This document shows positions 3,293-31,851 of a DNA stretch of 31,851 nucleotides, in pieces. Under the pieces are notes generated by a model that was not told where the DNA came from, made no database searches, and saw nothing but the letters and a program-made list of their open reading frames with translations. Location: NCBI GenBank assembly GCA_002269645.1, contig NIVC01004906.1, forward strand, positions 1 to 31,851, given 5' to 3'. The position numbers were made by a program, and so were the translations under genes. This stretch comes from Macrostomum lignano (lineage: Eukaryota). Positions within the stretch are counted from its first letter, which is position 1. Every line of letters begins with the position of its first letter.

Positions 3293-3429
3293 CTGGGTGG
3301 GAGTTGGGATATTTTTGAGAAGGGCAGGAAGGGCAGTCAAGGCCACACAACAGCAATTTCCTCTGATGTACTTTTATAGATTTTTTTACATCTGACTCTT
3401 TTAACTATTCTATAGTACTTCATGTCTTT

Positions 3430-4135: not shown

Positions 4136-4190
4136 TTCCTATCGACCCTCCAATCCACTAGCAGGACTAACAAGCAAGCACACAACCAAC

Positions 4191-4361: not shown

Positions 4362-4544
4362 GGCGGAATGCTTTAATTTATTGAAGCGAAGTTTTGGGGA
4401 TTACAAAAACGAAATAGGGGATAATGCTTTTTCGGATGCCGACGGCAATAGCGGGAAGGGGTGCTTCCTCGCCGATGAGACTGAGAGAAAAGTGAGTTCA
4501 GGCAATCTGAAAGGATAAAACAATGATTGCTTGCTAGTTCGGTA

Positions 4545-5742: not shown

Positions 5743-6160
5743 ATGATACTGTGCAAGCTTATGGCGACTTTTTGGATAGTTAAAGAATCCAACAATGCTT
5801 ATTTCTGTGTATGAAATGAAAAGAAAAAATAAAAAGGCGTTAGCTTTAAAATCAAAATACTGTTCGCTGCAGACGTAAAGCCGGTTTGTATTAAATAAGC
5901 ATTTCCTACTACAGTTCGCAGTGATGATTTGTTAGTAATATTTCATTTTAAAAATAGTTAACAAAGAATAACAAATATAGTTAATCTCAGCATGGCAAAC
6001 ATAGACTGTCTACAATTTCTAAGCTTATAGGTGAAACATTTTATTCGTTATTTTGTGTATGGCCAAAACTGCTAAATCTAACAGTTAAAAAGCTGTTATT
6101 ATTTTTCTTATAGTTTTATAGGAGGGTATATTTTTTTAGTTTTAAATGCCCGCAGCCCAC

Positions 6161-6906
6161 GAGGATCAGCCTGAGCGAGGATCAGACTGAGCAAGGATCA
6201 GACTGAGCAAGGATCAGACTGAGCAAGGATCAGCCTGAGCAAGGATCAGACTGAGCAAGGATCAGACTGAGCAAGGATCAGACTGAGCAAGGATCAGACT
6301 GAGCAAGGATCAGACTGAGCAAGGATCAGACTGAGCAAGGATCAGACTGAGCAAGGATCAGACTGAGCAAGGATCAGACTGAGCAAGGATCAGCCTGAGC
6401 AAGGATCAGACTGAGCAAGGATCAGACTGAGCAAGGATCAGCCTGAGCAAGGATCAGCCTGAGCAAGGATCAGACTGAGCAAGGATCAGCCTGAGCAAGG
6501 ATCAGACTGAGCAAGGATCAGACTGAGCAAGGATCAGCCTGAGCAAGGATCAGACTGAGCAAGGATCAGACTGAGCGAGGATCAACCTGAGCAAGGATCA
6601 GACTAAGCAAGGATCAGCCTGAGCAAGGATCAGCCTGAGCAAGGATCAGCCTGAGCAAGGATCAGACTAAGCAAGGATCAGCCTGAGCAAGGATCAGACT
6701 GAGCGAGGATCAGCCTGAGCGAGGATCAGCCTGAGCAAGGATCAGCCTGAGCAAGGATCAGCCTGAGCAAGGATCAGCCTGAGCAAGGATCAGCCTGAGC
6801 GAGGATCAGCCTGAGCAAGGATCAGCCTGAGCAAGGATCAGCCTGAGCAAGGATCAGCCTGAGCAAGGACCAGCCTGAGCGAGGATCAGCCTGAGCAAGG
6901 ATCAGT
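6161..6906. repeat. Minisatellite, 16-bp unit, about 46 copies, starting 30 bp beyond the CCDC51 stop
   Basis: Unit GAGCAAGGATCAG(A/C)CT, period 16. Confidence 0.95.
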
Positions 6907-6935
6907 CTAATGCAGCATCAACATAGCAAAGCAAA

Positions 6936-7415
6936 TCAGGACAATGAGCCGAATAATTTAACAGTCAAGTAGGCTGCAAAACAGCCCAAAGCGGCGGCAC
7001 TGGCCGCTAGAACTGCTGTTCTTTTCATTCCAATATCGATTAACCGTTCCAGTTCCAGCTGCTTTGCTGCCTCATCAACAGTAGGACTATCTAATAGCGA
7101 TGCCTCAGTACTGTTGCTATCTGTCCTAGCAACAGTAGAATTAGCATTTGCAGCGGTTGCTAACGACGCCAACAGGTTGTTAAGCTGATCGGCTTGTCCT
7201 CGCAACGCCTCTGCTAGTTTCTGATTTTCTTTTGCTTCGCGGAGTCGCAGCCAGCGATGCAGAGAAGCTGCACCAACCCCTAGCAACGTCCCGGCAACCG
7301 AGCCGATCAGTGTCCAGTACTTGGTCCGGTCGCTGTGGGCTCGCTCCTGCTCGTGGCTGGCGCGGAATGCAGCTGACAGCTGGCTAAACTTCTTGCGCTC
7401 CTCGTGCTCGGCAGC
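6936..7415 (-). CDS. CCDC51: CCDC51 / MITOK (mitochondrial coiled-coil K+ channel pore subunit homolog) exon 2
   Basis: Acceptor CGACAG|GCT at 7416/7415, phase 0. EERKKFSQLSAAFRASHEQERAHSDRTKYWTLIGSVAGTLLG resembles the recalled CCDC51 [41 protein letters not shown]; second hydrophobic segment at the C-terminus; TGA at 6938-6936. Confidence 0.88.
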   Translation of the reverse strand, partial: AAEHEERKKFSQLSAAFRASHEQERAHSDRTKYWTLIGSVAGTLLGVGAASLHRWLRLREAKENQKLAEALRGQADQLNNLLASLATAANANSTVARTDSNSTEASLLDSPTVDEAAKQLELERLIDIGMKRTAVLAASAAALGCFAAYLTVKLFGSLS

Positions 7416-7435
7416 CTGTCGGGCGTTGAAGTGCA

Positions 7436-8150
7436 TGAGGTTAGCAGCTAAAGTACGTGAGGTTAGCAGCTAAAGTACATGAGGTTAGCAGCTAAAGTAC
7501 ATGAGGTTAGCAGCTAAAGTACATGAGGTTAGCAGCTAAAGTACATGAGGTTAGCAGCTAAAGTACATGAGGTTAGCAGCTAAAGTACATGAGGTTAGCA
7601 GCTAAAGTACGAGGTTAGCAGCTAAAGTACATGAGGTTAGCAGCTAAAGTACGAGGTTAGCAGCTAAAGTGCATGAGATTAGCAGCTAAAGTACGAGGTT
7701 AGCAGCTAAAGTACATGAGGTTAGCAGCCAAAGTACTGGAGTCTAGCAGCTAAAGTAAATGAGTCTGGCAGCCAAAGTACTGAGTCTTGCAGCCAAAGTA
7801 GAGTCTAGCAGCTAAAGTACACGAGGTTAGCAGCTAAAGTACATGAAATTAGTAGCTAAAGTACATAAGGAAATCCAATAAAGTACAAGTCTAGCAGCCA
7901 AAGTACATGAGATTAGCAGTTAAAGTACACGAGGTTAGCAGCTTAAGTACTGAGTCTAGCAGCTAAAGTACATGAGTATAGCAGTTAAAATGCACGAGTC
8001 TAGCAGCTAAAGTACATGAAATTATTAGCTAAAGTACATGAGGTTATCAACTAAAGTACAAGTCTTGCAGCTAAAGTACGAGGCTAGCAGTAGCAGCTAA
8101 AGTACACGAGTCTAACAGACAAAGTATACGAGTCTAACAGCTAGAGTAAA
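7436..8150. repeat. Minisatellite, 20-22 bp unit, about 33 copies, filling the CCDC51 intron
   Basis: Unit GAGGTTAGCAGCTAAAGTACAT; homogeneous at 7440-7720 and diverging towards 8150. Confidence 0.95.
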
Positions 8151-8207
8151 AAATATATGAACCACAAAATAGTATATATAAATCAAACAATTAAAGCTAG
8201 CAAATAC

Positions 8208-8702
8208 CTGAACTCGCTGAGTTAGACTCTGCTCAGATTTAATTAAATCGTGCTCTCGCAAAATCAATTGCAAATATTTATCTTCTCCTTTCTGATATTT
8301 GTCCATCTCTAATTCAAGCCTGTCGCGTTCCATGCTTAGCGCCTGCTGTTGCTGTTGCAGGGTCCGCCTGTGCTGTTGAGAGTCTAAGAATTTCTCCTCG
8401 GCATTGAGCACAGCTTGTTGAGCTCTACGAACATCGTCTAAACCAATTAGTGATTCGTACCAGCTAGCCAGGGAATTGAAGTATCTCAGCAGGGCGGAAG
8501 AAATGACATTAGTTTGTTGCTGCTGCTCAACTGGCTCCTTCTGCTGCTGCGTTTCTATGGAACTTGCCGATGAAGAATAGTAAGTCACGTGATGGCGCCG
8601 ATAATAACAGTAATGATTATCAAGTCTGCCGAATTTTAACAGACCTCGATTCAATCGAACTGATTGAATAGCACAGACAGAAGAAAGACTGTAGGGTGCC
8701 AT
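8208..8702 (-). CDS. CCDC51: CCDC51 exon 1
   Basis: ATG at 8702 with an Arg/Ser-rich, acid-poor N-terminus (presequence-like). YESLIGLDDVRRAQQAVLNAEEKFL...EDKYLQLILREHDLI is typical of CCDC51. Donor CAG|GTATTT at 8208/8207, 165 codons; spliced product about 324 aa. Confidence 0.88.
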
Positions 8703-8849
8703 GCAAAATAAATATTAATATAATGAAGTAATACGCCACAGCACTACTGCCAGTAGAAAGTAGAAAGTCAAAAAATCTATATAAAACTCATAATCATACA
8801 AATGATAGCACATACAGACGGCCTCTGACAGACTCAGGTGTCCTCAAGC

Positions 8850-9190
8850 ACACTGGGGTGTTTTCTATCACACTGGGTCTCTAATATCCCACTGGGGTAT
8901 CTTCTATCACACTAAGCTGTCCTCTATCACACTGGGGTGTCTTCTGGGCTGTCCACTATCCCACTGGGGTGTCCTCTGGGCTGTCCACTATCCCACTGGG
9001 GTGTCTCTGGTCTGTCCACTATCCTACTCCACTGGGGTGTCCTCTATCATACTGGGGTGTCTTCTGGGCTGTCCACTATCTCATTGAGATGTCCTCTATC
9101 ACACTGGGGTGTCTACTATCACACTGGGGTGTCCACTATCACACTGAGGTGTCCACTATCACACTGGGTGTCCTTTAACATAGGGGGTGT
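8850..9190. repeat. Degenerate minisatellite, about 20-bp unit, upstream of CCDC51
   Basis: Recurrent CACTGGGGTGTC(C/T)(A/T)CTATCA. Confidence 0.85.
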
Positions 9191-9352
9191 TTTTAATACA
9201 CTATAGTTTTCTTTATTTCAAAGGGATAGTTAAAAAGCGTAAATAACAGAGACAAATATATTTAACACAAAACAAAGACAGAAGAAAAAATTTGGGTAGA
9301 TTTTATTTGAAAAGATACTACTAAATGCCACCACTAAACGCGCAAACCATTT

Positions 9353-9361
9353 CACTTCCGG
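9353..9361 (-). promoter_or_regulatory. ETS/GABP-type motif (CCGGAAGTG) in a small CpG patch, candidate CCDC51 promoter
   Basis: CACTTCCGG on + within CGCGCAAACCATTTCACTTCCGGCGG. This is a single short motif, so support is weak. Confidence 0.3.
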
Positions 9362-10020
9362 CGGTACAACAGCAAAAAAACCATGGTGCGAAAAAAATTA
9401 ATGTATTTTAAGAATGTTTTCATATTAAAAAATAAGCACAAACGGACAAAAAATTCAATGTGGAAGACAAAACAACTGTCAGAACAATGGCAAAAGAAAG
9501 AAATTTAGAATTTTTGTTAAAAATTTAAAGCAGCAATGATATGGTTAATAGAATGGAAAAACTGGAGCTTGAATGAAGGCAAAATGAAGACAATCAGCGC
9601 ACGATTCTGCTTTTTTTCAAAAACAAAAATAAGTTTAAATAACAAAAATTGTGTTTGTACTTATTAAAGCGCTATAAATACTACTTATAGCATTCAGATA
9701 AACTTGAATGCGCTACGCTTTTAATGCAATAAGGCAAGTATAGATATTATTCAAGTGTAGAAAGTTCAAAACTTTAGAATGTAGTGCTATTAATAAAAAA
9801 GATTCTTCAAAATGCACTTTTAAACCTGTTATGCATGATTAAATCAACAATAAATCGACTACAATATTATTACAGATTACTATAAAACTAGCAACAGAAA
9901 GTTTCCTTATGGAGTCCTTGGTCAAGGGCTGAATTAGCACGCGTATGTACGTGTATTTTTTGATAATTTTGCAAATCTGCACAGTGACTTAAGCGCTTAG
10001 GCAATTTTTTTAACTCCTTA

Positions 10021-10285
10021 TTGCACGCTTGTGTCAGTGTGTATCAATCAAACTTGCACGCTTGTGTCAGTGTGTATCAATCAAACTTGCACGCTTGTGT
10101 CAGTGTGTATCAATCAAACTTGCACGCTTGTGTCAGTGCGTATCAATCAAACTTGCACGCTTGTGTCAGTGTGTATCAATCAAACTTGCACGCTTGTGTC
10201 AGTGTGTATAAATCAAACTTGCACGCTTGTGTCAGTGTGTATCAAACTTGCACGCTTGTGTTGTGCCAGTGTGTATCAAAAGCAC
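10021..10285. repeat. Minisatellite, 33-bp unit, about 8 copies
   Basis: Unit TTGCACGCTTGTGTCAGTGTGTATCAATCAAAC. Confidence 0.95.
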
Positions 10286-10395
10286 TGACAATAGATTTTA
10301 AATTTTTATGAGCATATGTCGTGCGCGCTTTATAAGGCATCCCGTTATTGACATGTTTGTAACCCAATCCGACTTCATTGCCAGTTGATCATAGA

Positions 10396-11771
10396 TTATA
10401 AATCGGCTAATTCAAAACTGGCGCCAGCGGAGAGGCCGAAGAATTGCGATTTATCACCACCAATGTTATTATTATTATCGAAAAAGGAGTCGCCCAAAAT
10501 AGCTGGCACACTGCCAAGAGAGGAGGCACCAGCTGAAGAGTTTAAATTATCGTATTCGCTGCTCGGTTGGCAGACGCTCAATTCGACTAAGGAAAAGTCT
10601 GCCGCCTCACCCTGCTGGCAGGTGGGATACTGCGGCTCAATCTCGGCTGAAGGTTGAATAATTGTTTCAGCATTAGTTAGTTGCTGATTCGGCAACCACA
10701 CCTGTCGCCTATCAGCCTGTTGTTCGCCAGTCAAAAACATTGACTGTTCGTTAAAGAATACTTGCTGCTGGCTCAACTGTTCAGATCCATAGTAGCCAGC
10801 CACTAAACTGAACTTTGACTGGTGCCGTAACCCGAATCGAGGCGGGCATCTATCTGGCATTGTTTCAGGTACTGCTGAGCCTGCTCCTCCTGCTGCTGCT
10901 GAGACGGCTGTGGCGATGGCTTAACCAGTAGTATTTCAGACGATCGATTAGCGTTAGTATTGAAATCTGGTTTCCAATCGTCTGTGCAAACAAAATTAGA
11001 TTGCTGATGAGGATGATGACGGCCCGGCTGACTAGCAGCGCCAGAATTATAGCTAGGCTGCTGATAAGTCACCGACTGCAGATTCAGCATTGAACAACTG
11101 GAGGACTGTTCGTTAGTAGTTAAGAATCCTGCCTGCTCGCAAGATACCAACAGTACGGGAAATTGTCCAATGATGTAATACTCCTGCTGTTGAAGTGGTG
11201 CGCAGCTACTCTCTGCAGCAGTTTCTTTAACTAATTGGCAATCCGGACTAATAGCAGCGCTACACAATTCTTGATCGGCACTGTCGGTTAAATCAATCAC
11301 TGATTGGTTCAAGTCAATATTGGCACAGTCTTCGTCAACATGCTCAGCCTCGCCTTCAGCTGAATTAAAAGCGATATTGCCGCCTAGCTCTGATCGCCAA
11401 GTTCCTGAACTATAATTAACAAAATGCAACCGACGCCCACGACCTCTGCCGGAACTTTTGGTGAACCAGTAGCTACCATTGACACCACTATTAGCTGATT
11501 GCTCCGGTGACTCAAACTCTAAACGTGACGTCAGGGCGCTGTACACAACAGGCGAAGGTGACGGTGTTGACAAAGCTGCACTATAATTCAAGCTTCTAGG
11601 GGTGACAGTGGAAGTTTTACTACCGCGACCTCCACGATGGCCACCTCGAGTGCTGCTGCCTTTGCTGGCAGGACTAGCTAGCATCATTTCTAGCCTAGGC
11701 AATGGTGCTGCATTGAACTGACTATCAACGGAAGATGCCCAGCTATAGTCTAGCTCCATTTCAGAAAACAT
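10396..11771 (-). CDS. Uncharacterised Ser/Gln/Asn-rich, probably disordered protein (about 455 aa if one frameshift at about 10815 is corrected)
   Basis: ATG at 11771, 322-codon ORF; an overlapping 154-codon ORF of the same composition continues to TAA at 10398-10396. One extra base in the TTT run at 10814-10816 joins them. Acceptor-like TTTGCAG 46 nt upstream of the ATG. No family recognised. Confidence 0.6.
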
Positions 11772-14559
11772 ACTGCCGCGTATGCCTCTAATTAAGTGTC
11801 AGATAGACAGACAAGGCTGCAAATGATGTAACATAACAAGTTTTTAAAGCTTTTTTGAATAGATTTGCATGAATAATTTTTGCTCCTTGCTTATTGGGCG
11901 CCCCGAAGGGGGAACTAGATTGCAGGTTAGCTACTATACTTAAAATGAGTAAAATCAGCAATATTGTAAATTAAAATAGCCAACACAAATGCATAATTTT
12001 AGCAACACATAGGGCCTATACATCTTACACTATTGTTACTATAACTTTTTAAAAGTACTTTATACTAGTTATTAAATTTATCGCAAGCTTGAAATAAATA
12101 TGATAGTTCGCAGTGTTTCCTATAGCCAGCATTAGCAACCTAGCAACTAGAGTATGGTATATTAATCACTTGTTTTAGGCTTTTGAGAACCACATTTAGC
12201 TCTTCTTTAGCAAGCCAGACAGAAAATGGCAGGCTTAAACTGCCATTGTCTATTAACACTTTTTTTTGCTGCCATGCTTTCCACCAATAGCTTTTGTTTC
12301 ATATTCCAACTACAATTGTTAGTGCTGATAGACTATTTTGTGATTGACTTGCAAATGCTAGATCTTAGCCCCCAGACCACAGCCACCTGCCCCTCCTCTC
12401 TAGTTTGTGAGTGTCTATGTATAAGAGCTCATTAGCTTTTGCATGTTTATCTCGAATTGTTCATCCTATGGCCAGATTGTCTAGCATTGCCCATTGGAAA
12501 TCTACTTGAACTTGGTGCTATATTTTAATTTGCCTTGGCTTACTATAATCATTTGTCTCCATTTTGTGTACTACTTACTATTTTCGTCTCCATCGCTATC
12601 ATTCTAGCTTTTTCTGCCCATTATGTTATTTGTGCCTGCAACTTTTTCCTATATATTATTGCCCTTTTGTTCTACTTCCTAGCCTAGTGCAATTCTCTGC
12701 TCTTATTGATTTAATTTGTATGAGTAACTTAAGTTATTATGTTACTTACTTAGTACTCTTGTTACCTAAGTAGTAAAAGTAGGCTTTTTGCAATTAGAGT
12801 TTGATGATTTTCTCAATTTGAAGATTTTAAACAGGTCAAAGAATGTTGGCAAGCATTTTCTCATTTATACAAGATACCATCTGTATAGACTCCCATTTTT
12901 CTCAAAATAACATAAGATCCTACTTAAAATAATATATAAAAACCTCAATTCATATTGGTTGGGTCTACAATGTTTGCTGATGTTTGCTAGCCAGACATTT
13001 GCCAGTTGGACATTTGCAAGTGGCAATTAGTTACAGAATTATGCCCTCTTAGGCTTATATGTACTTGCCTTTGACAACTGCAGACATAACACTAATCTAA
13101 TACCACATTCTCTCTACTATTGCTAATAAATTAAAATATACAGGTTGCTAGCAAACTAATACTTACTAGAATGCTCTTTGTCTTCTTGATATTTTGGGTA
13201 TATTTTAGTAATAGGTACCAAAGCAACTATTATAACCAAAACTGTCTAAACTAGTAATAACAAAAGATAGTAAGGTTTGCTAGCTAACAAAAAGTCAATC
13301 AGTGAAAAATTTTGATACTGAAATATTTGCAATTTAGTGGTTTGAAAAAAAAACTATTTTAGTCTACCTTTGATGGTTTATGATGCATAAAAGTTCTAAA
13401 ACAAAATTTAGATAAATTATGCAGTCAACTAGTCTAACATCTAGCATCTAGTTTAACAAAGATTTCTTTGAATGATAAAATATTACAAAGTTTACTTCTG
13501 ACAGTTTTGTATGGCTTTTCCCAGTTTAAGCGCAAAAGAAGATATACCAATTACAAGGGAAATCTCTAGCAAGCCAAGTTTTGAAGCAAATAAAAGAGCT
13601 TGCTAAATGGTAATCTTGGCTTATAGATCAATATTTCTTAGTTCATTAGGAAATCCAAAAGTACATAAATAATTATAATGCAGCTTGTCAAGTGCATGCT
13701 ATCATGCTATCATGGCCAAACTTCATTAAGCAGAGTTTAAAACTGAACAAATTTTCAAAATAGCTTTTAGACACTTTAGATAAGTAAACATTACAAGTTA
13801 TCTGATTGGTTGTTATTTTTGTCTTTTGATTAAAAAGGCTTGATTTTGGCGTAAGTGTATGTACTAGCCTGTACTCATTGTTTAGTGTACATAATATTTG
13901 CCTATTTCTGTATGCATAATAATATTGATAAATAATTTTGTATAGTTCTTACTATGATTTACATGCAAAAAATAGTTAAATAGTAGCCACATTAAACTTA
14001 AGCAAAAATAAAAAACCATTTTATTTTTGTTTTACTACATAAAACATTGGCAATAATTACTTTTTGTTATAAATGCATCCCTAGGACCCTATATATAAGC
14101 AAATTTCACCCCAAATAAATCAGTTTTTTTGTTCTTACCCAAAACTTGCATTCACATTCTCAGACCTTTAAAAATCTTTGGAAAGGAGTTATCAAGTTAG
14201 TTATTCAGTTATAATTTCAAAGTGCTAAGAAATATACTTAAGACATATAAGCATCCCCTGTGACAAATTGGTGGCATAACAGTAGAATTTATAAAGACAA
14301 AGGAAAACACCCCATTACAACTTGGTGTCAACAATGGGAATTTTAATAGAGAAGTTACCCCTGCAACATAAGAAGATGTTATATACCTTTACAAACATGC
14401 AAGCTAAGGCTGCTTCAACCTAGCATTTACTAGCAAATATCATTGCAGATCATGTTAGCTAAGCTGCCTAAAGCTGCTAGGGTTGCACTGCAAAAAAGGC
14501 ATCAATGAAAATGATCCAAAATGTAAAAAAACTACTTCGAAAGTGCCTGTTTAGCTAAA

Positions 14560-17484: not shown

Positions 17485-18025
17485 GAATATACCAATATTG
17501 ACAGATTATAATCTTTACATAACTAAGTTTTTATAATTTATAGTATACCTTGCTTGGTATAGCCTTCTATTTGTATATATAAGACATGGCAAATGCATGC
17601 AATTAAATTGATCAAATTTTTCAAAATTTAAAAAATATGCTAGTTTAACAAAATGAATACTGCTTTTATCAGGAAATTTAAACATTTTGTAAATTATTAA
17701 TTATATTTATTGTAGGATTACTTTTTTATTATTATTTTGGCATCACTAACTTTGAGGCAATAATGCAATTGAGGCAAGAAGCAGAAGAAAGCTGGGCACC
17801 AAAAAGCATAGAAACCTAAATAGATAATATAGTATCTTACTATTTATTAAGGCCATAGATAAGCTATAGGCCTACCTATTTATGTTAGCCTAGCCTAGGT
17901 AATATAAAAATAGTGATTAAAATAGGCCTAAGCATAAAAATCCATGGGCAAAACATATAACAATAGTATAGGCCTAGTTCTTCAGTGAGGGTCTTTTGAC
18001 TTGCTAAGATAGGCGGCCTACATAG

Positions 18026-18917
18026 TGTAGAAGGGCCTATGTTTAAATTAGTATTTTCCCACAAAATCAAATTCCCACCAAAATAACAAATACCGTATAA
18101 TTTGTTTTAATTCACAAATTTGTTTTATTGAATAATTTTTGTTTTAGCGAAGTGAATAAATTTGTTTTAATGTTGTAGCACAAACCAATAAAGAAAGACT
18201 TTGACTAGTATAAATATAAGGTATACTAAGGTATACTAAATATAATATAAGGTATACTATAAATATATTAACAGGAAATTAAGATTTGGTTCTTCTGAAT
18301 TAGTCCTCTGAAGCAGTATTGCAGACTAAGTTACAGTGTTGGATAGCAAAGAGCATTTTGCCAGTACAGTGATGAGCAAGGATTGCCAGTAAAGAGGGTG
18401 GAATACCCAATGTAAAGGATGGAATACCCAGTGTAGAAGGGTGGAATACCCAGTGTAGAAGGGTGGAATACCCAGTGTGAAGGTTGGATTACCCAGGAAG
18501 GGAGAATTTTCAGGTTGCTCAGATTAGCGTGATGCAGTTCTAAGTTGTGAGAGACAGTAATAAAAGAAGCTGGAAACCTCTTGGTCTGTAGTAAACGCCG
18601 TGTTTGGACTATAGAGTAGGAATTTAGCAGTAGTCAGCAGTGTTTTACCTCTTGGGCACTGAAGCTACCTAGGGTAATTTGTAGCAACAATAGCCTATAA
18701 CATAAAAAGTACATGTAAGTTTAGAAATAAGATTCTAGGAAATAGCAAATTTAGTGCATATTAGTACAGCTAAGTAGGATTAAATAGGCAGAAATAGATA
18801 TAAACCTGCAACAACTTGGTGACTAATTGGTGGGATCTCAGTAGGCAGCGATTAGGCCTATAACAACTTTGTGGCATTAGTGGGATTCTGAGAGATAGAG
18901 GAAACAGGCCTGCTACA
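18026..18917 (+). repeat. 5' LTR (892 bp)
   Basis: Aligns with 26610-27517 (about 51 substitutions plus indels by hand); TATAAATA at 18209; AATAAA near 18559; internal 22-bp repeat. Confidence 0.95.
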
Positions 18918-18920
18918 ACT

Positions 18921-18939
18921 TGGTGGCAGCGGTGGGATT
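18921..18939 (+). promoter_or_regulatory. Primer binding site complementary to the tRNA-Leu 3' end
   Basis: TGGTGGCAGCGGTGGGATT, 3 nt after the LTR. Its reverse complement AATCCCACCGCTGCCA-CCA is the 3' end of animal tRNA-Leu(AAG) as recalled. Confidence 0.9.
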
Positions 18940-19010
18940 GAGGAACCGGCAAAAATCTAGTATAGTGTTTTAAGTAATTAAAAGTACATTTTAAAAGTAC
19001 ATTAGTTAGG

Positions 19011-19948
19011 ATGGCTACAGGAATTAATGATGCAATGGCACTTTTAGCTGAGGAGATTAGGAACAAATTAGAATTAGGACCATTAAGGCATGTGAAGATA
19101 CAGAAGTTTACACCTAGCCAGGATATTAGGATTTGGCTCACTGCTTTCGACCAGAGGTGTGAAGCAGAAGGAATAGAAGTAGAGCATAGGAAGACTAAGC
19201 TATTAGCTAACCTAGATCTAGCAACAGCATTTGCTGCATTGCAAAGGCTGAATTTGCCTGATGAGCTACCCTATGAGGAGATTAAGGAACGCCTAGTAGA
19301 GAGGTTCAGTAGAATAGGTAGTGCATCAGAATTTTGAGAGGAATTTTGTGGGAGAATGCAGGGTAGGAATGAGACTGCGGAAGCCTATGCCGATGCATTG
19401 ATTGAGTTGTCCACAAGGGCTTTTCCTAATATGAACGCTGAACAGCGCGAGGAGGAAGTAGTTGAACAGTTTATTAAGGGGATAAGAATCCCAACAGACA
19501 CTAGGGAGAAGCTAATTTTTGCGCAGCCAGCTAATCTGCAGGAGGCTAGGAGAATGTTGCGTAGCATATGTCACACAAAGGAGGTGTGAAGATGGTGAAG
19601 GAGGGAGAGGATGAGCAGCAGAAGCTACAGGAGCTGGTGAGACAGCAGAAGGATGGGCTGGAATAGCAGAGGAAGAGAATTGAAGAGCTCATGGCGTATA
19701 AGCCACTGTACAAGCCAGGGCCTCAGCCATGTCCAGCTCAGATGCCGCGTCAAGCATTCTAGCAGCAGCCGCATTTCAGCCACAAATTTCAAATATGTAT
19801 CGGCCCAGGCCAAGGAATGAGTTCATAGGCAAATCATTTTGTGCTGCAGCCAGGAAAGTGTGCAGTCTGCCAGAATCCGGGACCGATAAGGCCTGGTTTT
19901 GACCATCAGTGCCGCCTGTTCCGCAATTGAGGTAATCAGGGAAACTAA
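19011..19948 (+). pseudogene. gag: gag (interrupted)
   Basis: MATG...QKFTPSQDIRIWLTAF...GRMQGRNETAEAYADAL.ELSTRAFP...VVEQFIKG. Stop at 19335, 1-nt shift at about 19588, then a Gln-rich segment with TAG stops, CAVC...HQC, and an end at NQGN-TAA (19946-19948). Confidence 0.85.
19939..19945 (+). promoter_or_regulatory. Candidate -1 ribosomal frameshift slippery heptamer G GGA AAC
   Basis: X XXY YYZ pattern immediately before the gag stop. The -1 frame is open for about 40 codons and is the same frame as PR/RT. Confidence 0.65.
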
Positions 19949-22900
19949 AGTTTGAAGGTCGAGAGACAAGGCCACGTCCCTCCAGAAAATTTAATTGCAA
20001 AATGAAGGCCTCTAAGTGTGATTCTCAAGGTTGGCAAACTGTCCCCATTCGAAAGAGACATGCGTGATACAACTGTAAATAATGCGTTTAATGCACCTGC
20101 ATCTGCACCATCTGTATTTTCTGCATCTGCATCTGCCGCATCGCGATATGTTGTCCCTGCATCTGCTGTTGATGAGTCAGCATCAGCCGATGAGTCCCGA
20201 GAAGAAGAAGAAGAACCCGCACTTGAAGCAAGCCAACCAAAGCCGAAAAAGGTAAGCAAGTGTAAAGTTTTTGTCAAATCTAAGGTAGAACTAGTGAATC
20301 ATAAAAGTTACGAGGCAATAGTAGTAGGCAATATAGAAAAACAGGACTTTTATTAGATACGGGTGCCAGAAACAATTTCTTAAGTCAATCAGTGTGGTCA
20401 AAACTATTCGAACAAGATCAAATTAGGGAGACGAATAAGAGAGTTTCCACATTCGATGGAACGAGAGTTCAGTTAGATGGCGAAGTACATACTGCAGTGA
20501 AATTTAGAGACTTTGAAATCGAAATTGATTTCCTACTATGTAGCCATGAGTGTGATAACATACTCGGAATGGAGTTTTTCCTAGAGCAGTGTGAGAGCAT
20601 TCATCAAACAAAAGGCATGCTTATCTTGAAAGAGGGAATGTGTATTCCTATGCAGTACACCCACCTTCTGGTAAAGGTTTGCCGAGTATATATGCAGGAG
20701 AAGGCAGTCATTCCACCAAATAGTGCATTGCGAATCCGTATGCCTAGCAAAAAATTCTGAATCTAATTATGGAGCTCCAATGACAATTGAGACAATTGGA
20801 AATGGTGTGAGAGCAAGAGAAGAGACTCTGGAGATGAATCCAACTCTAGTGACTAGCGTGAAGGAGTAGCTATAGTGGAAGTCGTGAACTCGAGTCTAGT
20901 AGAAGTTAACTTGCCAAAATCATCGCTAGTAGGTTTAGCCAAGCCAATGAGAGCTAGAGAACTTACCTATCTAACTAGTGAGAAAAATCAATCAGAGCCA
21001 GTTACTGAGCGAGTCGATCAGGCGCAATCTAATGACAAGTCTTGGATTAGTGAAATTAATATTAGCGAGAACTTAACAAAAGAGAAAAAGGAGAAAGTGA
21101 TTCAGCACAGTGAAGCCTTTTCGCAAAATGAATTGGATATGGGTCTAACTCAGCTAGTGACACATGAAATTTCATTAAAAGATGAGACGCCTGTGAGGAT
21201 CCCAACTAGAAGGATTCCCCCTCATCTTTAGAAGCAGGTAGACACTCAGTTAGATGACATGCTAGCTAAGAACTTAATTTGACCATGCTACTCTACGTAC
21301 TCAACACCCTTAGTGATTGTACCCAAGAAGGATAATACTATTTGCACTGTGAGTGATTTCAGAGTACTAAATTCTAGGGTAAATTATTTCCCATATCTGT
21401 TGCCTAATATTCAGGAAACTTTCTTGCATTTGATGGGCAGTCAGTACTTTAGTAGTCTTGACCTAAATTCTGGTTATTGGCAGGTTCCAATTAAGGAAGA
21501 GCACAAACACATGACTGCATTTTCAACTTTAACTAGAGGGCAATTTGAGTATTAGGTGATGGCGCAAGGCCTATCTAATGCACCAGGCATTTTTCAAAGG
21601 CTTATGAATCTTGTATTGGCGGGCATTCAGCACAAATATGCCATGTCATACATAGATGACATTGTGACTTATTCGAAATGATTTGAAGAGCATTTAGAGC
21701 ATTTGAAGGAAGTTTTCCAAAGACTTATTAATGCAGGACTAAAGTTGATAGCTAAGAAATGTAATTTATTCCATAGTGAGCTAAAATATTTAGGCCATGT
21801 GATTGGGAGAGAAGGAATTAAGACCAACAAGATGAAAATAGAAGCTATTAAGAGTTGGCCGAAGCCAAAGGAGGTGAAGGAATTACGAAGCTTATTAGGA
21901 TTATGTAACTACTATAGTCGCTTTGTCAAAAATTATGCCAAAGCCGTGTATCCCTTGTTTCAATTGACTCGGAAGGGAGTGCAAAATTTTCAAGCAAAAT
22001 GGACTAAGGCTCATGATTAGGCATTTGAAGAATTAAAAAATAGAATGATGTCAACAGAAGTTTTAGCTTATCTGGAGTTTGTAGACGATGAAAATGTTAA
22101 ATGGTTTTAGACACTGATGCTAGTGATGGACGCATAGGAGCCTGTTTAGGTCAAATCCAGTCAGGTGGCATCAAGAGGCCTATAGCATATTTCAGTCGTG
22201 CTATGAAGGAATTGGAGAAACGGTATCTTTTTACTAGAAAGGAACTATTAGCTTTAGTAGACGTGATGAAGCATTTTAGGTTTTTTTTAATATGGAAGTG
22301 ATTCCTAGCGCGCACTGATCATAAAGTAATTATGTGGTTATAAAAGCAGACAGAAGCTCAAGGAATTCTAGGTCAATGGATAGAATGATTAAATGAGTTC
22401 CAGTTTGATATAGAACATAAAAGTGGGGCAAAACATTCTAACGCAGACAGTTTGTCCAGAAGACCGGCAGAAGAAGGCATGAGTGTCAGGAAAGAAGGTG
22501 TGAAAGCCAGTAAATTTATGAATGAAGAAGGCATGAGTGCCACGAGATAAGGCATGAAAGCCAGTGAATCTGTGAATGAAGATGGTGTGAGTGCCATGAA
22601 AGAAGGTGTGAGAGCTGTGGAAAACTGTAGTGAAGGAGAGATGCAGACTCTGCATCCCACTGATTCAGAATCTAGGATTGGGTCATTAATCTCAAGAGAG
22701 AAAGGTGTGAAAGAAACTGATGTGTCAGCACTAAGTTCAAGCAATATGCAATTGAACCGAGACACTGATCCTGAACACATGAAGAATGATATGCCTAAAG
22801 TTAAAAAATTATTGACTGATTATTTGCCAGTACCCTTGAAAAAGGAACAGATTGTAAAAGCTCAGAGAGAGGACGCAGCAATTTGTACATTAGTTAAATA

Positions 22901-22982
22901 GAAGCAAGATAAGCTGTCAGTTCCCCCATCTCAAGAGAGCAACTCAGCTGAGTTAAAGCAGTTAAGCAAGCATTATGAGAAT

Positions 22983-24188
22983 ATGAAGCTAGAAAAGGAA
23001 ATGCTCATTATTGAAGAAGATCAGAAATGGAAAGTCGTCTTGCCTAGATCCTTGGATAAGCTAGTTCTTAGCAATCTACATGATAGCCTACTAGCCGGAC
23101 ATTTAGGCAGGGACAAGACAATCCAGTGTGTCAAGGAGAGATTTTGGAGGCCAGGTTTAGTCACCGCAGTAGAGAAATATGTGGCGGAGTGTATTCCGTG
23201 CCTAGAGAGCAAAAGAGGTCATAAGATCCAGGCGCCAGTACTGTCATTTCCAATCAGTGAACCATTTCATAGATTGCATATAGACATGATTGGGCCAATC
23301 TTGAAAGTAAGCAAAAGAGGGCACCAGTATGTTCTAACTATAGTGGATAGTAACACGCGATACCCATTTGCATTCCCAATGCGTAATCAGAAAGCAGACA
23401 TGATTATCAAATTATTACAAGAGAGAGTGTTCAGTGAGTATGGCCAGTGCCATTGGATTCACACGGACAATGGTAAAGCATTTACTAGCAAGCAGTTTAA
23501 TTTGTTTTGCGATTTGTATAATGTTAAGCATATATGCACGACCCCATACCATGCCCAAAGTAATGGTTTGGTGGAGCGATTTAATAAACAAATTAAATCA
23601 ATTATTACTTGCTTAATAGAGAAAGACCACAGTGATTGGGATCTGCTAATCCCAGCAGCATTAGTAGTAGTCAGAACCAGTGTGAACCAGACCACCAGAT
23701 ATTCACCTCATTTTCTATTAATTGGAAGAGAAGCAGTTTTGCCTATGGATAGTGAGCTCAGGGAGTCAAATAATTACGCTAATTATCCAACGTATGCTGC
23801 CGAACACACAAAGAGGCTAGAGAGTGCAAGAAAACTTGTGAGAGAGAAGTACAAGAAGGTGCATAGCCATAGACAGGAAAATGCAGAAAATCAGAAAAAG
23901 CCCAAAAATATCGCACTAGGAAGTCTAGTACTAATAAATAATCTGCAATTAGAGAATGAGGAGTCAAATAAGTTTTATAGGAAAAAGAGAGCAGCTTACA
24001 AAGTGCTAAAGCAGATTTCGGAGGTTGTCTTCAAGATCCAGAAGGAAGAAAACAGAGAATTAACAGGCAATAAACTAATAGTGCATAGTGACTACATGAC
24101 ATTAGTACCGAACTCAGCTAGAGAGCCAATAGATAAGGGAGGCCAGCCCAGTATGCCAACTGCAGAGCTTCAAGATAAGGGAAGCTAG
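22983..24188 (+). CDS. Integrase domain, still an open 401-codon frame
   Basis: HHCC (H..LAGH...C..C), D (HIDMIGP), D (HTDNG) and E (SNGLVERFN). Confidence 0.93.
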   Translation: MKLEKEMLIIEEDQKWKVVLPRSLDKLVLSNLHDSLLAGHLGRDKTIQCVKERFWRPGLVTAVEKYVAECIPCLESKRGHKIQAPVLSFPISEPFHRLHIDMIGPILKVSKRGHQYVLTIVDSNTRYPFAFPMRNQKADMIIKLLQERVFSEYGQCHWIHTDNGKAFTSKQFNLFCDLYNVKHICTTPYHAQSNGLVERFNKQIKSIITCLIEKDHSDWDLLIPAALVVVRTSVNQTTRYSPHFLLIGREAVLPMDSELRESNNYANYPTYAAEHTKRLESARKLVREKYKKVHSHRQENAENQKKPKNIALGSLVLINNLQLENEESNKFYRKKRAAYKVLKQISEVVFKIQKEENRELTGNKLIVHSDYMTLVPNSAREPIDKGGQPSMPTAELQDKGS

Positions 24189-24698
24189 GCGGCAGAGGCA
24201 ATTTGCAAGGGAAGCCAGTCCAAGAAGACGACAAGAGCTAGACCAACTAAGAAGCTATGTGAACAAAAGAAGAGTCATCATCAGATGAAGAAGACCAAAT
24301 CAAATGGCAGTGCAAAATCCGTGATGGAAATGAATCTGTAAGAGGAAGCGATTTAGAGATAGGAGCAGAAGTAGAAGTTAGGGAGGAAAGAAGTGAAGGA
24401 GAGAATACACAGCGTGAGAGCTTAGAGGAAGAAAGTGAGGAAAGTGAGAAGGGAGAAGAATCAGAGCTTGAGCACAAGGGAGAGAGAGAAAGTGAGGAGG
24501 AGGTTGCACGCGAGCACAGTGAGTCAAAGGAGGAGATATCACATGCCAAGCAGAGTGAGAGACAGGATGACGCAATACTAGCTAAAGGTATAACAGGCGC
24601 AGTCAGATTAAGCCCCCAAACAGATGTCAGTGCTATCTGAAAAGGCTAATCTCTGTGTGGAGCCTATTATAGGGACTAAAATTTTGAGTCAGGGGAGA

Positions 24699-24952
24699 AT
24701 TGGCAGCGAGGGTAAGGCACAGAGCAAACAAACAAGTGGGATTTCATTGGGTAAGGGAATGAAATCAGAGCAGCCAATTAAAATCCAGCTATTGGGAAGG
24801 CCAGGAGTGGTCAACTGGGAAATCGGGGCAATCAGCCAATGAAAATTCAGCTTTTGATTAAATGAATTGATGGGCAAATTAAAACAAACAACGCCTAGGG
24901 TGGGGTGCCACGCCTATATAAACAAACACCCAGAGGTGAGAGGAAGTCAATT
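24699..24952 (+). promoter_or_regulatory. Internal Pol II promoter candidate: five CCAAT/ATTGG boxes plus TATA
   Basis: ATTGG at 24699, 24746 and 24791; CCAAT at 24774 and 24836; TATATAAA at 24915-24922; TCAATT at 24947. Confidence 0.6.
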
Positions 24953-24996
24953 ATAGTCATGTTGACAGCTAGTAACCGTTTTGGTATTGATTGACC

Positions 24997-26103
24997 ATGT
25001 TGGATTGCAATAGTTCCGTAATGGAAGATACGATTGATATAATGGCGGAAGACAATATCTTAGACAAGATTTTAGCTGACATTGAGATAGGAAGTGTAGA
25101 GGAAATTGAAGTAAGTGTGAGTGCAAAGACATCAGGAGACAACGCCGTGATGGCAGCGGAACTGGCAAAGATGTCAGGTGACAACGCCGTGATGGCAGCA
25201 ACAACGAAGTCATCAGGAAATGACACGGTGACGATAGCAGCAGTGGCGATGACGCCCAACAACAGCTCCGTGGTGGCGGAGGATGAAGAGGATCGCCCAA
25301 CCAAGCAGCTGAAGTCGGTGATTATCAAGAGGACATCTACTGAGACAGAAGGTGCGCAGTCAGCTAAGCGGCCTGCCCTGGGGAACCAGCCATTGGTTCC
25401 ACACAACCCAAAGGCCCGAGCGCAGCTGCTTAGCAACCAAGCCAACAGGCCAGTGCCTGTCATTCTGGCCATCATGAAGTGGAAGCCACAAGGCATTTGT
25501 CTCGCCAGTCAATTCCAGCTGATTCAGCCGAGGCTGCCGGCAGCAGTTGGTAGGCGAGGACAACAAATAGCAGCGCAGCAAGCTGCGAGGGCCAGCAGCC
25601 ACAGCGGCAGCAGCAGCAGCAATCGGCGGGCAGCCTGCGCCAAAATTGATGGCAGCTCTGACGCCAGTGCCGTCTACAGTTCCGAAGCGGCCACAGGATG
25701 CGGCAGCTTGTGGGTCAGCCAGCGCTGCAGACCTCAGCCTAGGCTCTGACTTCCCGGCCATGCTCGACAGGATCCCAAGAGCTCAACATGACCAATTGAA
25801 ATGCTTTATCAAGATGTTGAAAGGGCACCTGATGCGCATAGTGTATCTACGCACAGATCGGCCAACTCTATGTCGGTGCATGCAGGCCAAACCAGTGCTG
25901 CGTCTACTGGTGCAGCAATTTGATCTGGAGTCTAGAATCGCAGCGTGGCGCCAAGCAATCCAATATGCGCTGCTTAATCTGACACAGGTCGGGCAAACTT
26001 TCCATTGACTGCTTCTACAAATTGAGATCCGCTGGATGGCGGATCAGCTCGGCTGCCTTACCACGATCAGCTGCCTGAGGAATTCAAACTCGAGCGTAAT
26101 TAA
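24997..26103 (+). CDS. ORF3 of the retrotransposon, unknown function (about 360 aa after repairing one stop and 1-2 frameshifts)
   Basis: ACCATG at 24994-24999 (alternative ATGs at 25021 and 25042). A 252-codon ORF overlaps a 120-codon ORF (25646-26008) that reads on past a TGA to about 26103. Acidic, then Ala/Ser-rich, then a Leu-rich helical-looking C-terminus; no signal peptide or TM stretch. Confidence 0.6.
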
Positions 26104-26597
26104 GTAAATGAACTTTTGCAATTGTGAACTTACTTTTATTTGCATAAATTTCTATGCTAGTGCTATTTTTCTTTGTGAATTGCTTTTAATTGCGTGAATA
26201 CTATTTTTTGCGCGAATTACTAGTGCTAGTGCTAATTTTTCAGTGAATCTGTTTTATTTAGTGTAATTTTAAGACAATGCTATTTTTCTTTGCATGAATT
26301 TATGTTTTTGCTCTTATTTGGTTGAAGTTTCTGTACTTGTTTTTTGTGAAGTAGCCTTTAGAAATTTCTTATTTTCTGCATGCACAATTTTTATTTTATG
26401 CTTATTTTTCTTTGGTGAACAATTGCTTGATGACTTAGTGCTTTTCAAATGTTTATTAGCAACTACATTGTCTTGTATTTGTGCCATTAATACATTGCTT
26501 AGTTTTTTATGAATATGTATTGTTGTTGTTTTCCATTTATTACTTATATTAGTAGGCCTATCATTTTGTTCACTTAAAAATTTGCAAAATAATATTC

Positions 26598-26609
26598 AGG
26601 GAAGCCAAC
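26598..26609 (+). promoter_or_regulatory. Short polypurine tract candidate
   Basis: AGGGAAGCCAAC directly abuts the 3' LTR; it is short for a PPT. Confidence 0.4.
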
Positions 26610-27517
26610 TGTAGAAGGGCCTATGTTTAAATTAGTATTTTCCCACGAAATCAAATTCCTGCCAAAATTTACAAGTACCGTATAATTTGTTTTAATTCAC
26701 AAATTTGTTTTATCGAATATTTTTTGTTTTAGCGAAGTTAATAAATTTGTTTTAATTTTGTAGCGCAAACCAATAAGGAAAGACTTTGACTAATATAAAT
26801 ATAAGGTGAAGCTAGAACATTTTCTTTAACCTCAACCTTTTGGGTTCCTAACTCAGTTAATAGGAAATTAAGATTTCTTGGTTCTTCTGAATTAGTCCTT
26901 TGAAGCAGTATTGCAGACTAAGTTACCATGTTGGATAGCAAAAAGTGTTTTGCAAGTACAGTGATAAGCAGGGATTGCCAGTAAAGAGGGTGGAATACCC
27001 AGTGTAGAAAGGTGGAATACCCAGTGTAAGGGTGGAATAGGGGCCTACCCAGTGTAGAAGGGTGGAATACCCAGTGTGAAGGTTGGATTACCCAGGGAGA
27101 ATTTTCAGGTTGCTCAGATTAGCATAATGCAGTTCTAAGTCATGAGAAACAGTAGGCCTAATAAAAGAAGCTGGAAACCCCTCAGTCTATGGTAACACCG
27201 TGTTTGGACTGTAGAGTAGGAATTTAGCAATAATCAGCAGTGTTTTACTGCTTGGGCACTGAAGCTACCTAGGGTAATTCGTAGTGACAATAGCCCATAA
27301 CATAAAAAGTACATATAAGTTTAGAAATAAGATTCTAGGAAATAGCAAATTTAGTGCATATTAGTACAGCTGAGTAGGATTAAATAGGCAGAAATAGATA
27401 TAAACCTATAGCAACTTGGTGACTAATTGGTGGGATCTCAGTAAGTAGCGATTAGGCCTGTAACAACTTTGTGGCATTAGTGGGATTCTGAGAGATGGAG
27501 GAAACAGGCCTGCTACA
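26610..27517 (+). repeat. 3' LTR (908 bp)
   Basis: TGTAGAAGGG...GGCCTGCTACA followed by the ATAG TSD. Confidence 0.95.
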
Positions 27518-28570: not shown

Positions 28571-29460
28571 GTATGATATGAATCTATTAATCCCATTTTC
28601 TACTCAAACTTTTATTAGGCCCCTAGGCAATCATTATCAATTACACTATCATTTTTAATTCTAAATTTTGTCGGTCGGTAGTCATTCACTATTAATTTAT
28701 TAGGTATTTGATTTTATCTCTTTGTTGTAAGTAATTTATGTTAAAATCGTTTTCCATTATTTATAATGTAGAATGAATTCCGGTTGTTTCGCCCCTAGAC
28801 TGTTTTAGCCATATTCTGTTTGCCCATAAACCAGTTTGTCTATAGGCGTTTTGGTCAAAATGGTGTTTATGCCATAGTCCAGAAGGTGGCCTTTACACCA
28901 GAAAATTCAGGCATATTTTTGCCATCACTGACAATCTTGGCATACTGCATACATTTGGTGTATAGAATTTTCAAGTTTAGCATGAGGTGTACACAGTTGG
29001 CATACAAAAGATAAGCCAAGTTCAGGGCTAATGTAATTGTGTAGTTAAATATCAACTAAGAGGTGTGTTTACAAAAATTGGGAACTAAAAAAACAAAAAT
29101 ATTAATGCAATTTACAAAAAGTAAAGATTAAAACAAAGCCAAATGATATTAGGTTTAGATTTTAGCAAAAAATACTCCTTGTAACATTTAGTACAATTGT
29201 TATGTTTTTTTAAAATATGTTTTTTAAAAAAATTGGCATATAAACAACTTTGAGCTTGGCATAAACATTTTTAGAGCCTAATTTTGTTAGTGTAAAATTA
29301 AAAAACCATAAATTTTTATATTGTCATATGCCTGCCATGATCCAGACTATGGTACTACCCGAGAAAAAAAAACAAACCAAACTTGCTAAGTACTTGGTAA
29401 GTCAACAATGCAACCTTGTGGCAAGTACTGCCTAAGTACTGTCTAAGTTTTCCAAGTACA

Positions 29461-30165
29461 CTCAATAAGTACTTTCCAAGTATGCAATGTTTTCTCCAGT
29501 CACTTCTCAAGTACTTTCCAAGTATGCAATGTTTTCTCCAGTCACTTCTCAAGTACTTTCCAAGTATGCAATGTTTTCTCCAGTCACTTCTCAAGTACTT
29601 TCCAAGTATACAATGTTTTCTCCAGTCACTTCTCAAGTACTTTCCAAGTATGCAATGTTTTCTCCAGTCACTTCTCAAGTACTTTCCAAGTATGCAATGT
29701 TTTCTCCAGTCACTTCTCAAGTACTTTCCAAGTATGTAATGTTTTCTCTAGTCACTTCTCAAGTACTTTCCAAGTATGCAATGTTTTCTCAAGTCACTTC
29801 TAGAGTACTTTCCAAGTATACAATGTTTTCTCTAGTCACTTCTCAAGTACTTTCCAAGTATGCAATGTTTTCTCCAGTCACTTCTCAAGTACTTTCCAAG
29901 TATGTAATATTTTCTCCAGTCACTTCTCAAGTACTTTCCAAGTATGCAATGTTTTCTCCAGTCACTTCTCAAGTACTTTCCAAGTATGCAATGTTTTCTC
30001 CAGTCACTTCTCAAGTACTTTCCAAGTATGCAATGTTTTCTCCAGTCACTTCTCAAGTACTTTCCAAGTATGCAATGTTTTCTCAAGTCACTTCTCAAGT
30101 ACTTTCCAAGTATGGAATGTTTTCTTAAATCACTTTTCAGGTACCTTCCAAGTATGCAATGTTCA
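29461..30165. repeat. Minisatellite, 42-bp unit, about 17 copies, in the putative eIF1A intron 1
   Basis: Unit AAGTACTTTCCAAGTATGCAATGTTTTCTCCAGTCACTTCTC, preceded by loose AAGTAC seeds at 29385-29470. Confidence 0.95.
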
Positions 30166-31851
30166 CAAGAGCTATAAATACTTATCACATTTTAAAGTGA
30201 TTTAGGTGACTTATTTATGAGAAAGTATATGGTTCCAAGTGTGAACCTATTAAATATATAATTTATCTATAGAGCACTTGGCAAAATGTTGATACTCATA
30301 CCATGGACTTGCAAAAAATACAAAAAAACAAAAAATAATTCCATCATACAGAATTTCACTTGTTAAAAAAATTCAACAAGCAATAGGGAGCTTCAAAATA
30401 ATTGTAAAGTGTACTGTTATATTGTATTCAAAGTATTGATGCACATAAAAGTTGCAACTTAACAAATTATTCAGATGATCACAGGCAGAAAAAATGCAAG
30501 ACAAAGAAAAAGCAGCATAAAAAATGGACAATTATATAGCTAACAAATCTTCATTGTTTTCAGCAGGTTTTTTAAATGTAGATGATGACATTTATAGATG
30601 GTAGCTGAAATGGAAATTTAAGTGAATATGAATAATTATATTTCACAAAAAATTAAACCATGTAAATTCTACCCAGGTAATAGTTCTTAATCTAAAGAAA
30701 TGCTAATTAAATGCACTTTATAATATAATTACTATTTTGAGACTAATAGCAGTCTTTTTTAATGTAATAAATAAGTCTAAATATTTTTATAGAGATATTA
30801 TAAAATATAGAAAGTATTGAAATCTAAATATATTCCAAACAAAAATATTACTTTGCTTTTCAATAAAAATTTAATTTAGGCCTTGTCCTTAATAGACCAA
30901 TAATATAACATAGTTTATAAATATACTTAAATATTTTTTATTATAAATTGCTTAATTTTCTGATCTTAAAATCTAAATCATCAAATATACTAAAATAAAA
31001 GTATTCTATAAACAAAAAATAAAATTTTAAGTCTAAATACTTCTAGGCGTATAATTAAAAACTAACTAGGCTTATATTATATTTCTAATAAGCTAAAGAC
31101 AATTTATTAGACTGATTATAATTATAATTGGGCCTAATCAACAGATATTCTAAGACTTAATAAAACAATATTATTACTACTAATCTATTATCAATAAAAG
31201 TCAAAAATTTGCAATCAAAATTAATAACATAGCCTGGATAATTCTAGTCCAGCTGTCTAAAATTAAAAAAAAGTATTTTTACTCTATTTTTGTACTCTGA
31301 AGACATCTTGTATTTTACAATGAATTAAATCTGAACTGAAGATTAAAAACAGAAGCTAAAAGGCAAAACTGTAAACAAGGTCAAGGTTAGATAAGGGAGG
31401 CCAGATGATTTTTCCTATATATATACTAACCATTATGCAGATCAAGACAATAATTCTTAAGTCACAACTCACAAAAGTCAGTTTTAAATTTTATCTATAT
31501 TTATATTCTGAGTCAGTATCAGTATTATACTAAGCCCATATGACTATAATATTAGCTTCTAAAAAAAACTAGTTAAAGATCTAGTTAAAGAAGCCAAGAA
31601 GGCAGGCCTATGCCTATAGGGCATAGTGGGTAGCTGGCCTACTGGGCCATATAAAATGTCAATTACAATAACTATAGTCAGCCAATTGTTGAGCGACAAG
31701 GTATATCAACTACTATATGAAATAAAATCGGCAACAAAATAATTGCTAAAAGGCCTATCTAACTAAAGCCTAAGTTTGAAAAGAAAGATAAAAGGACAAT
31801 TTTACACAAACCTATGCAAAAGCGAAAATTAGAATTTTCGTTTCGAATTTT

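Follow-up and report, generated by a model that had tools for sequence, protein, structure and literature searches.

A clade of Ty3/Gypsy LTR retrotransposons in the flatworm Macrostomum lignano carries, behind pol, a clade-wide conserved, non-envelope accessory gene, which we call ORF3. A further and new observation is that elements with near-identical RT carry mostly diverged ORF3 and U3 sequences, and that the change from similar to diverged sequence falls no more than about 60 nt from the TATA box of a predicted internal promoter.

The window (the whole analysed stretch of 31,851 nt, contig NIVC01004906.1) holds a decayed Ty3/Gypsy element at 18026-27517, recognised by paired TG...CA LTRs, a target-site duplication, a primer-binding site, a polypurine tract and the domain order PR-RT-RH-IN. 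The domain order was read from the relative L093 by Pfam, which also gave a weak Retrotrans_gag match in that relative. The relatives (labelled L001 onward) come from searches of a 764 Mb genome. Among the named Ty3/Gypsy clades, Gmr1/Osvaldo, Mag, CsRN1 and Mdg3/Micropia are listed in PMC12801592. The features of the window element are as follows.

18022-18025: 4-bp target-site duplication before the 5' LTR, repeated after the 3' LTR
18026..18917, + strand: 5' LTR (TG...CA), 88% identical to the 3' LTR
18921..18938, + strand: primer-binding site, from sequence, presumably of the tRNA-Leu type
19011..19950 (end approximate), + strand: gag, interrupted by stops
19960..24687 (start approximate), + strand: pol (PR-RT-RH-IN and an acidic tail), with many stops and frameshifts
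24699..24840, no strand assigned: cluster of five CCAAT/ATTGG boxes, with AGCCAAT at 24774 and 24836
24912..24925, + strand: GCCTATATAAAC, TATA box of the predicted internal promoter
25021..26103, + strand: ORF3, broken here, 363-368 aa in open relatives
25021..25110, + strand: acidic amphipathic N-terminal motif of ORF3, activation-domain-like and also fitting the class 1 nuclear export signal pattern
25290..25500, + strand: basic and semi-conserved middle motifs of ORF3 (KRLKSVVIKR, KRPAL, RAxLL..QA.xPV)
25715..26100, + strand: conserved C-terminal domain of ORF3, all-helical, about 120 aa
26104..26596, + strand: T-rich 3' untranslated stretch, 48% T (35-51% in 18 relatives)
26597..26609, + strand: polypurine tract, from sequence; the same motif precedes the 3' LTR in relatives
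26610..27517, + strand: 3' LTR, followed by the 4-bp target-site duplication

Degenerate copies of the junction between LTR end and primer-binding site are found at the LTR ends (18807-18917 and 27407-27517) and also in the LTR of L079, as if U5 had grown by repeated capture of the primer-binding site. Elsewhere in the genome, elements are joined head-to-tail with one LTR in common (L058, L097, L105), and in L004 and L005 the stretch from RT to the pol tail is deleted and a mariner-like transposase is inserted behind ORF3. The window itself contains dense tandem-repeat arrays (80-10300 and 29320-30290; units of 12, 16, 22, 24, 32, 33, 40 and 42 bp) and, outside the repeats, a 331-codon stop-free frame on the minus strand (10803-11798).

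The roughly 1.1 kb of coding-like sequence behind pol, described in an earlier note made from the letters alone, is a real gene that is open in other copies, although its frame is broken in the window by a frameshift at about 25575-25586, a premature stop at 26006-26008 and a second frameshift near 26060. This copy is no longer able to make the full ORF3 protein. The first frameshift is absent from the twin copy L002 (99.95% identical) and may stem from misassembly; the other two breaks are common to L002 and the window. A DNA search of the genome gave 24 ORF3 matches, with the frame open to the end in L006, L008 and L009. The ACCATG proposed as the start (ATG at 24997) had to be given up, because it is a product of local CpG decay and ATG 25021 is better kept: among 19 aligned copies, ATG occurs at 24997 in seven (in frame in only three), GTG in a decaying CpG context in nine and other letters in three, while ATG 25021 is kept in 16. 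The long U-rich 3' region was described correctly, the 506-nt stretch ahead of the 3' LTR being 48% T.

All protein features listed in the earlier note are present (acidic N-terminus, SGDNAVMAA duplication, KRPAL, linker and Leu/Arg-rich C-terminal block), the duplication being missing in the more distant copies L010-L012. All members carry an acidic helix motif at the N-terminus, followed by short basic motifs, a variable Pro/Gln/Ser linker and, as the last part, a basic domain of some 120 aa. In 12/12 proteins the net charge is -7 to -12 over the first 40 aa and +1 to +9 over the last 120 aa. AlphaFold2 models the C-terminal domain as all-helical (pLDDT 87.9), and the invariant or near-invariant residues in it are Y, R, D, P, R, E, W and W. 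The Cys and His residues, to which the first description had drawn attention, are not conserved across the family, and a metal (zinc) site in this block was rejected for that reason. The protein is not an envelope: in 12 of 12 intact relatives the top 19-residue hydropathy is 0.42-1.01 and the N-terminus is acidic, none of the 12 proteins has the signal peptide and transmembrane anchor of an envelope, and 33 aligned C-terminal domains contain no conserved Cys scaffold of envelope type.

No Pfam match to ORF3 was found, the ESM Atlas returned no usable match, Foldseek gave no fold match with E under 0.001, and no DNA-binding fold was recognised in the fold searches. The VIA fold neighbours Gle1 CTD (Z 7.9, rmsd 3.9, 125 aligned) and cullin-2 (Z 6.3, rmsd 4.3, 110 aligned) were set aside as lying in the range of chance helical similarity. 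Phmmer against 1.84 billion representatives returned three weak matches, all resembling the own element family, while the database profile searches gave two matches, both named Macrostomum lignano, and further profile searches none; these searches were word-limited, which makes absence elsewhere weak evidence. The view that ORF3 is neither env nor a known host-gene fragment thus holds across the Pfam, profile and fold searches, which gave no match to anything, foamy virus Tas included. One predicted protein (P0004) fuses ORF3 fragments to another protein, which we take to be a ribosome-biogenesis protein by its looks, and P0004 is probably a gene-prediction chimaera. We found no published description of ORF3; it could be mentioned in PMC12801592, of which a part was consulted, or in an earlier classification paper cited there.

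Conservation as an open frame, the check on which the earlier proposal depended, is borne out by purifying selection, with dN/dS about 0.2 in other copies. Among six copies of the window's family, eight deep pairs, which cross one branch and are not independent, give dN/dS of 0.18-0.27 (bootstrap upper limits <=0.37), and between sister families ORF3 dN is 0.09-0.14 at dS of at least 2 or saturated. For two shallow pairs that involve decayed copies the ratios are 0.62 and 0.70, and their intervals reach across 1; the integrase control gives 0.02-0.08. The C-terminal domain has at least 150 genome matches (248 candidates), down to 25% identity. In a survey of 40 sampled loci, scored by RT, IN and ORF3 matches only, 25 have RT or IN upstream, eight are pol-less LTR elements and seven are unresolved. 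An integrase search delimits the clade at 69-100% identity, followed by a gap down to 56-61%; when 20 in-clade integrase loci outside the list of domain matches were inspected, the domain was present in 18, one had an interrupted N-terminal part and one had nothing. The ORF3 profile matched 0 of 20 sister-clade loci.

A sister Gypsy clade (L115-L122, L125, L128-L130) carries its own ORF3 of 240-290 aa behind pol, with 74 genome matches and a layout of basic N-terminus, acidic middle and helical C-terminal domain. Against the ORF3 profile it aligns over 95 columns (P 0.0009, probability 23%) with the same helix order, and 24 of the 50 listed structural neighbours are common to both proteins (counted by eye, without a control); it is likely a remote homologue of the window-type ORF3. 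In another sister lineage (L126, L127 and L134, about 1280-2020; L133, to 2754) a long tail continues in frame with integrase; it opens with an LEQQLSLS motif similar to the ORF3 N-terminus and has 19 genome matches, and its C-terminal domain has no profile similarity to ORF3 (P 0.38).

The five CCAAT/ATTGG pentamers reported earlier are found downstream of pol, which ends at 24687, and ahead of the 3' LTR (26610); their positions are 24699, 24746, 24774, 24791 and 24836, with TATATAAA at 24915. Block shuffling of the element gave five boxes within 142 bp in 5 of 2000 trials. Of these boxes and the TATA, only box 5 (AGCCAAT) and GCCTATATAAAC are invariant in 19/19 related copies; boxes 2 and 3 are intact in 17/19, box 4 in 14/19 and box 1 in 11/19, and since the median conservation of all 5-mers in the region is 13/19, boxes 1 and 4 are kept no better than their surroundings. 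Transcription is predicted to start about 30 nt 3' of the TATA. The CCAAT cluster turned out to be confined to the window's branch and is no family-wide feature, and the family-wide enrichment of RRCCAAT is not clear (15 seen, 8.6 expected). A TATA-like box lies 71-159 nt upstream of the ATG in 13 of 23 diverse family members, while the stretch searched before ORF3 has no TATA-like match in the other 10. The possibility that the internal promoter is a leftover LTR was rejected, as similarity was never above shuffles in 7/7 families. Contigs of four presumed-RNA runs, which cover parts of the element and cannot show a transcription start, list no splice joint before ORF3. The earlier claim of an LTR-independent promoter is therefore retained as a prediction, with indirect support from the invariant TATA and AGCCAAT and from the exchange points at the TATA.

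These exchange points emerge from 32 pairs of elements with RT DNA 93-100% identical, in 31 of which the ORF3 C-terminal DNA is just 56-76% identical. Integrase dS is 0.10-0.44 in pairs with ORF3 dS of 2 or saturated, and U3 identity climbs with ORF3 identity, i.e., U3 mostly follows ORF3. In 9 of 11 whole-element comparisons the identity drops abruptly at the promoter/ORF3 border (one drop is inside pol, one is gradual). Fine mapping was run on 13 pairs, two of which were left out because the alignment ran past its ends; in 10 of the remaining 11 the drop falls between about -41 and +55 nt relative to the TATA-like box. The pairs were chosen for shared pol, overlap in members (about five lineages) and are not independent, and the TATA equivalents were partly read by eye. 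L062 and L068, for example, are 100% identical up to the switch point and 77% beyond it; they have most of the LTR in common and different ORF3 genes, so the pairing of ORF3 with the LTR is not strict. Taken together, the comparisons show that blocks of ORF3, 3' UTR and U3 have passed from one element family to another. Selection alone cannot produce an abrupt identity switch. Besides a template switch at the 5' end of a co-packaged subgenomic RNA, the pattern could reflect homogenisation that repeatedly reached as far as the last conserved element, the ORF3 alleles being held apart by selection or by U3 linkage. Under either account, the TATA region is a functional border.

ORF3 also occurs in pol-less elements, which measure about 5 kb and have a pair of LTRs. 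Besides a primer-binding site they contain a Gag shortened to about 200 aa, a spacer, the acidic tail of pol, and the promoter with ORF3. Among 28 pol-less loci found via the internal region (one locus is cut by a contig end), 25 contain motifs of ORF3 and about 20 can be read in one frame right up to the end of the retrieved sequence; a second set has the motifs in 16 of 22 loci. In many of these copies ORF3 is 99% identical to that of an autonomous family, and its retention may for this reason be a by-product of recent exchange and not of selection. In an old pol-less lineage (L075-L077, L079-L082, L086, L232-L259) the Gag frame is still open; this Gag is shortened internally to about 200 aa, ends in what resembles a zinc knuckle, and may be a modified capsid or a packaging competitor.

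The cytosine-targeting process suspected from the window alone is real, CpG-directed and active on both strands, the latter as expected of 5mC deamination. On the window's branch, 21/92 CpG cytosines in pol have changed versus 38/913 other C sites, and 15/92 versus 12/441 in ORF3 and its promoter; on the L093 branch the values are 2/56 and 18/898. By its CpG direction this decay shows methylation of the elements by the host, and low-level 5mC, DNMT1 and DNMT3 are reported in M. lignano (PMC11292947). A comparison of C>T load with ORF3 integrity had been proposed as a check; intact copies are indeed CpG-richer, but they are also younger, which confounds the comparison. CpG o/e in pol is 0.63-0.93 in twelve younger copies versus 0.44 in the window copy, a gap for which age accounts.

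Our preferred interpretation, which we hold tentatively and at somewhat less than even confidence, is that ORF3 is a conserved non-env gene with its own TATA promoter behind pol, whose product, like foamy virus Tas, acts in the nucleus to activate the co-inherited LTR or to keep it from being silenced. Such a role is suggested because the separate promoter, the acidic N-terminus, the basic folded domain and the co-inheritance of U3 all fit it. A short ORF3 RNA would begin at the internal start, extend to the 3' LTR and be made even while the 5' LTR is off; the target of the basic domain would be the cognate U3 or a chromatin factor located on it, and co-activators would be recruited by the acidic helix at the N-terminus. 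A protein that activates a silent LTR has to be expressed from another promoter, as is the case for foamy virus Tas (PMC7390438). The short RNA could further be co-packaged, with a template switch forced at its 5' end, and the swapping of ORF3 blocks at the TATA would then follow, because such an RNA would force the switch there. In its boldest form, which we consider doubtful, the model is a two-promoter, foamy-virus-like circuit with a transactivator or anti-silencer of new fold, in which ORF3 and U3 would fit each other like lock and key and be shuffled as one cassette onto a common gag-pol via the ORF3 subgenomic RNA, so that families and pol-less parasites would change regulatory identity and evade silencing with their enzymes unchanged.

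The main rival, which we regard as fairly unlikely, is a shuttling adaptor like Rev or CERV, with an N-terminal export signal, basic import motifs and a C-terminal domain that would bind an RNA element of the 3' UTR or U3 and export unspliced genomic RNA. The class 1 export-signal pattern occurs in the first 35 aa of 18/26 members versus 2.1 expected from shuffles, a control that ignores relatedness and helix periodicity, and Arg, Trp and Tyr are conserved in ORF3, which moves together with the 3' UTR and U3. Against this, the pattern is missing in 8/26 members, and acidic activation helices resemble export-signal helices. CERV of the C. elegans element Cer1 is a precedent for such an exporter, yet it comes from spliced LTR-driven RNA (PMC10309623), and thus an exporter would need no promoter of its own. 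A further, quite unlikely, reading is that ORF3 lacks a promoter of its own and is expressed through cis-splicing or SL trans-splicing of LTR-driven RNA, the CCAAT and TATA boxes being incidental. At the TATA position, L074, L075, L081 and L083 have TTTTTCAG, which would fit a splice or trans-splice acceptor, a YAG is kept near 24957-24968 across copies, and bdelloid ORF3s are described as coming from spliced messages (PMC5408684); but the pyrimidine tract ahead of the YAG is poor, GCCTATATAAAC and AGCCAAT are invariant in all 19 copies, and boxes of the CCTATATAA type are found again in distant families, in intergenic DNA that cannot be aligned.

An unlikely explanation is that ORF3 suppresses or decoys a host defence protein of the piRNA or chromatin pathway without recognising its own LTR, old alleles being kept by an arms race. 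The many old ORF3 alleles on near-identical gag-pol, the long disordered linker with short motifs and the CpG-directed decay in an animal with 5mC, DNMT1 and DNMT3 would agree with it, but the selection on ORF3 is purifying and not positive, and a public good should be easily lost from pol-less elements, 25/28 of which retain the motifs. We find it very unlikely that ORF3 is a component of the particle or integration complex, i.e., a detached integrase tail that aids nuclear entry or target choice. The sister lineage L126, L127 and L134 does have, in frame with pol, a similarly built tail with an LEQQLSLS-like start, but the C-terminal domain of that tail gave no profile match to ORF3, and ORF3 has been exchanged independently of integrase, something not expected of its direct partner.

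Additional ORFs in the slot ahead of the 3' LTR are already known, among them plant antisense ORFs, the enzyme ORF3s of bdelloids and CERV, and the ORF3 protein belongs to none of these. Foamy virus Tas/Bel1 is likewise a regulatory ORF near the 3' LTR, with an internal promoter that can work while the LTR is silent, but it belongs to a retrovirus and not to Ty3/Gypsy, its promoter lies inside env, no sequence or fold similarity was found, and the activity is demonstrated for Tas and only inferred for ORF3 (PMC7390438). The maize Grande GENE23 and Retand TRP28 ORFs are accessory ORFs between Gypsy pol and the 3' LTR (PMC7264820; PMC11963269), and for GENE23 an own promoter and a nuclear protein are reported (PMC7264820); unlike the animal, sense-strand ORF3 with no Pfam match, they are plant, antisense ORFs, with the TRP28 domain. 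The ORF3s of bdelloid rotifer LTR elements are sense, non-env, modular third ORFs of an invertebrate Gypsy lineage, and one non-autonomous bdelloid family retains its ORF3; they differ in being described as spliced and in being captured enzymes (GDSL, DEDDy) or membrane proteins (PMC5408684), whereas our ORF3 has no traceable donor, and neither Pfam nor the all-helical model gives a GDSL or DEDDy domain in it. CERV is, like ORF3, a non-env accessory protein of an animal LTR retrotransposon, and it is nuclear, as predicted for ORF3; it differs by its spliced LTR RNA and by an export role demonstrated for it (PMC10309623), and we found no similarity to ORF3. VANC of VANDAL elements is a family-specific accessory factor of a methylated transposon, and family-specific short tandem repeats, known from that system, occur in the LTRs of ORF3 elements too; VANC is by contrast a MAIN-derived protein of dicot DNA transposons (PMC13547354), with no similarity found to ORF3, and the host of ORF3 is an LTR retrotransposon and not a Mutator-like DNA transposon. 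The LTR repeats in question are tandem, family-specific and of 19-46 bp (L055, L059, L060, L071, L078, L081, L083, L093; window 18390-18500), and a regulator specific to each family may bind to them.

Complex retroviruses and plant transposons are known to encode regulators of their own, of which there are, to our knowledge, hardly any examples among animal LTR retrotransposons. ORF3 is clade-wide, old, of no known protein family and present in young copies. LTR reporters are used in PMC12801592 and the animal has transgenesis, which makes the escape of retrotransposons from silencing testable. Swaps of ORF3 and U3 at the internal promoter would explain how LTR subfamilies diversify on one gag-pol.
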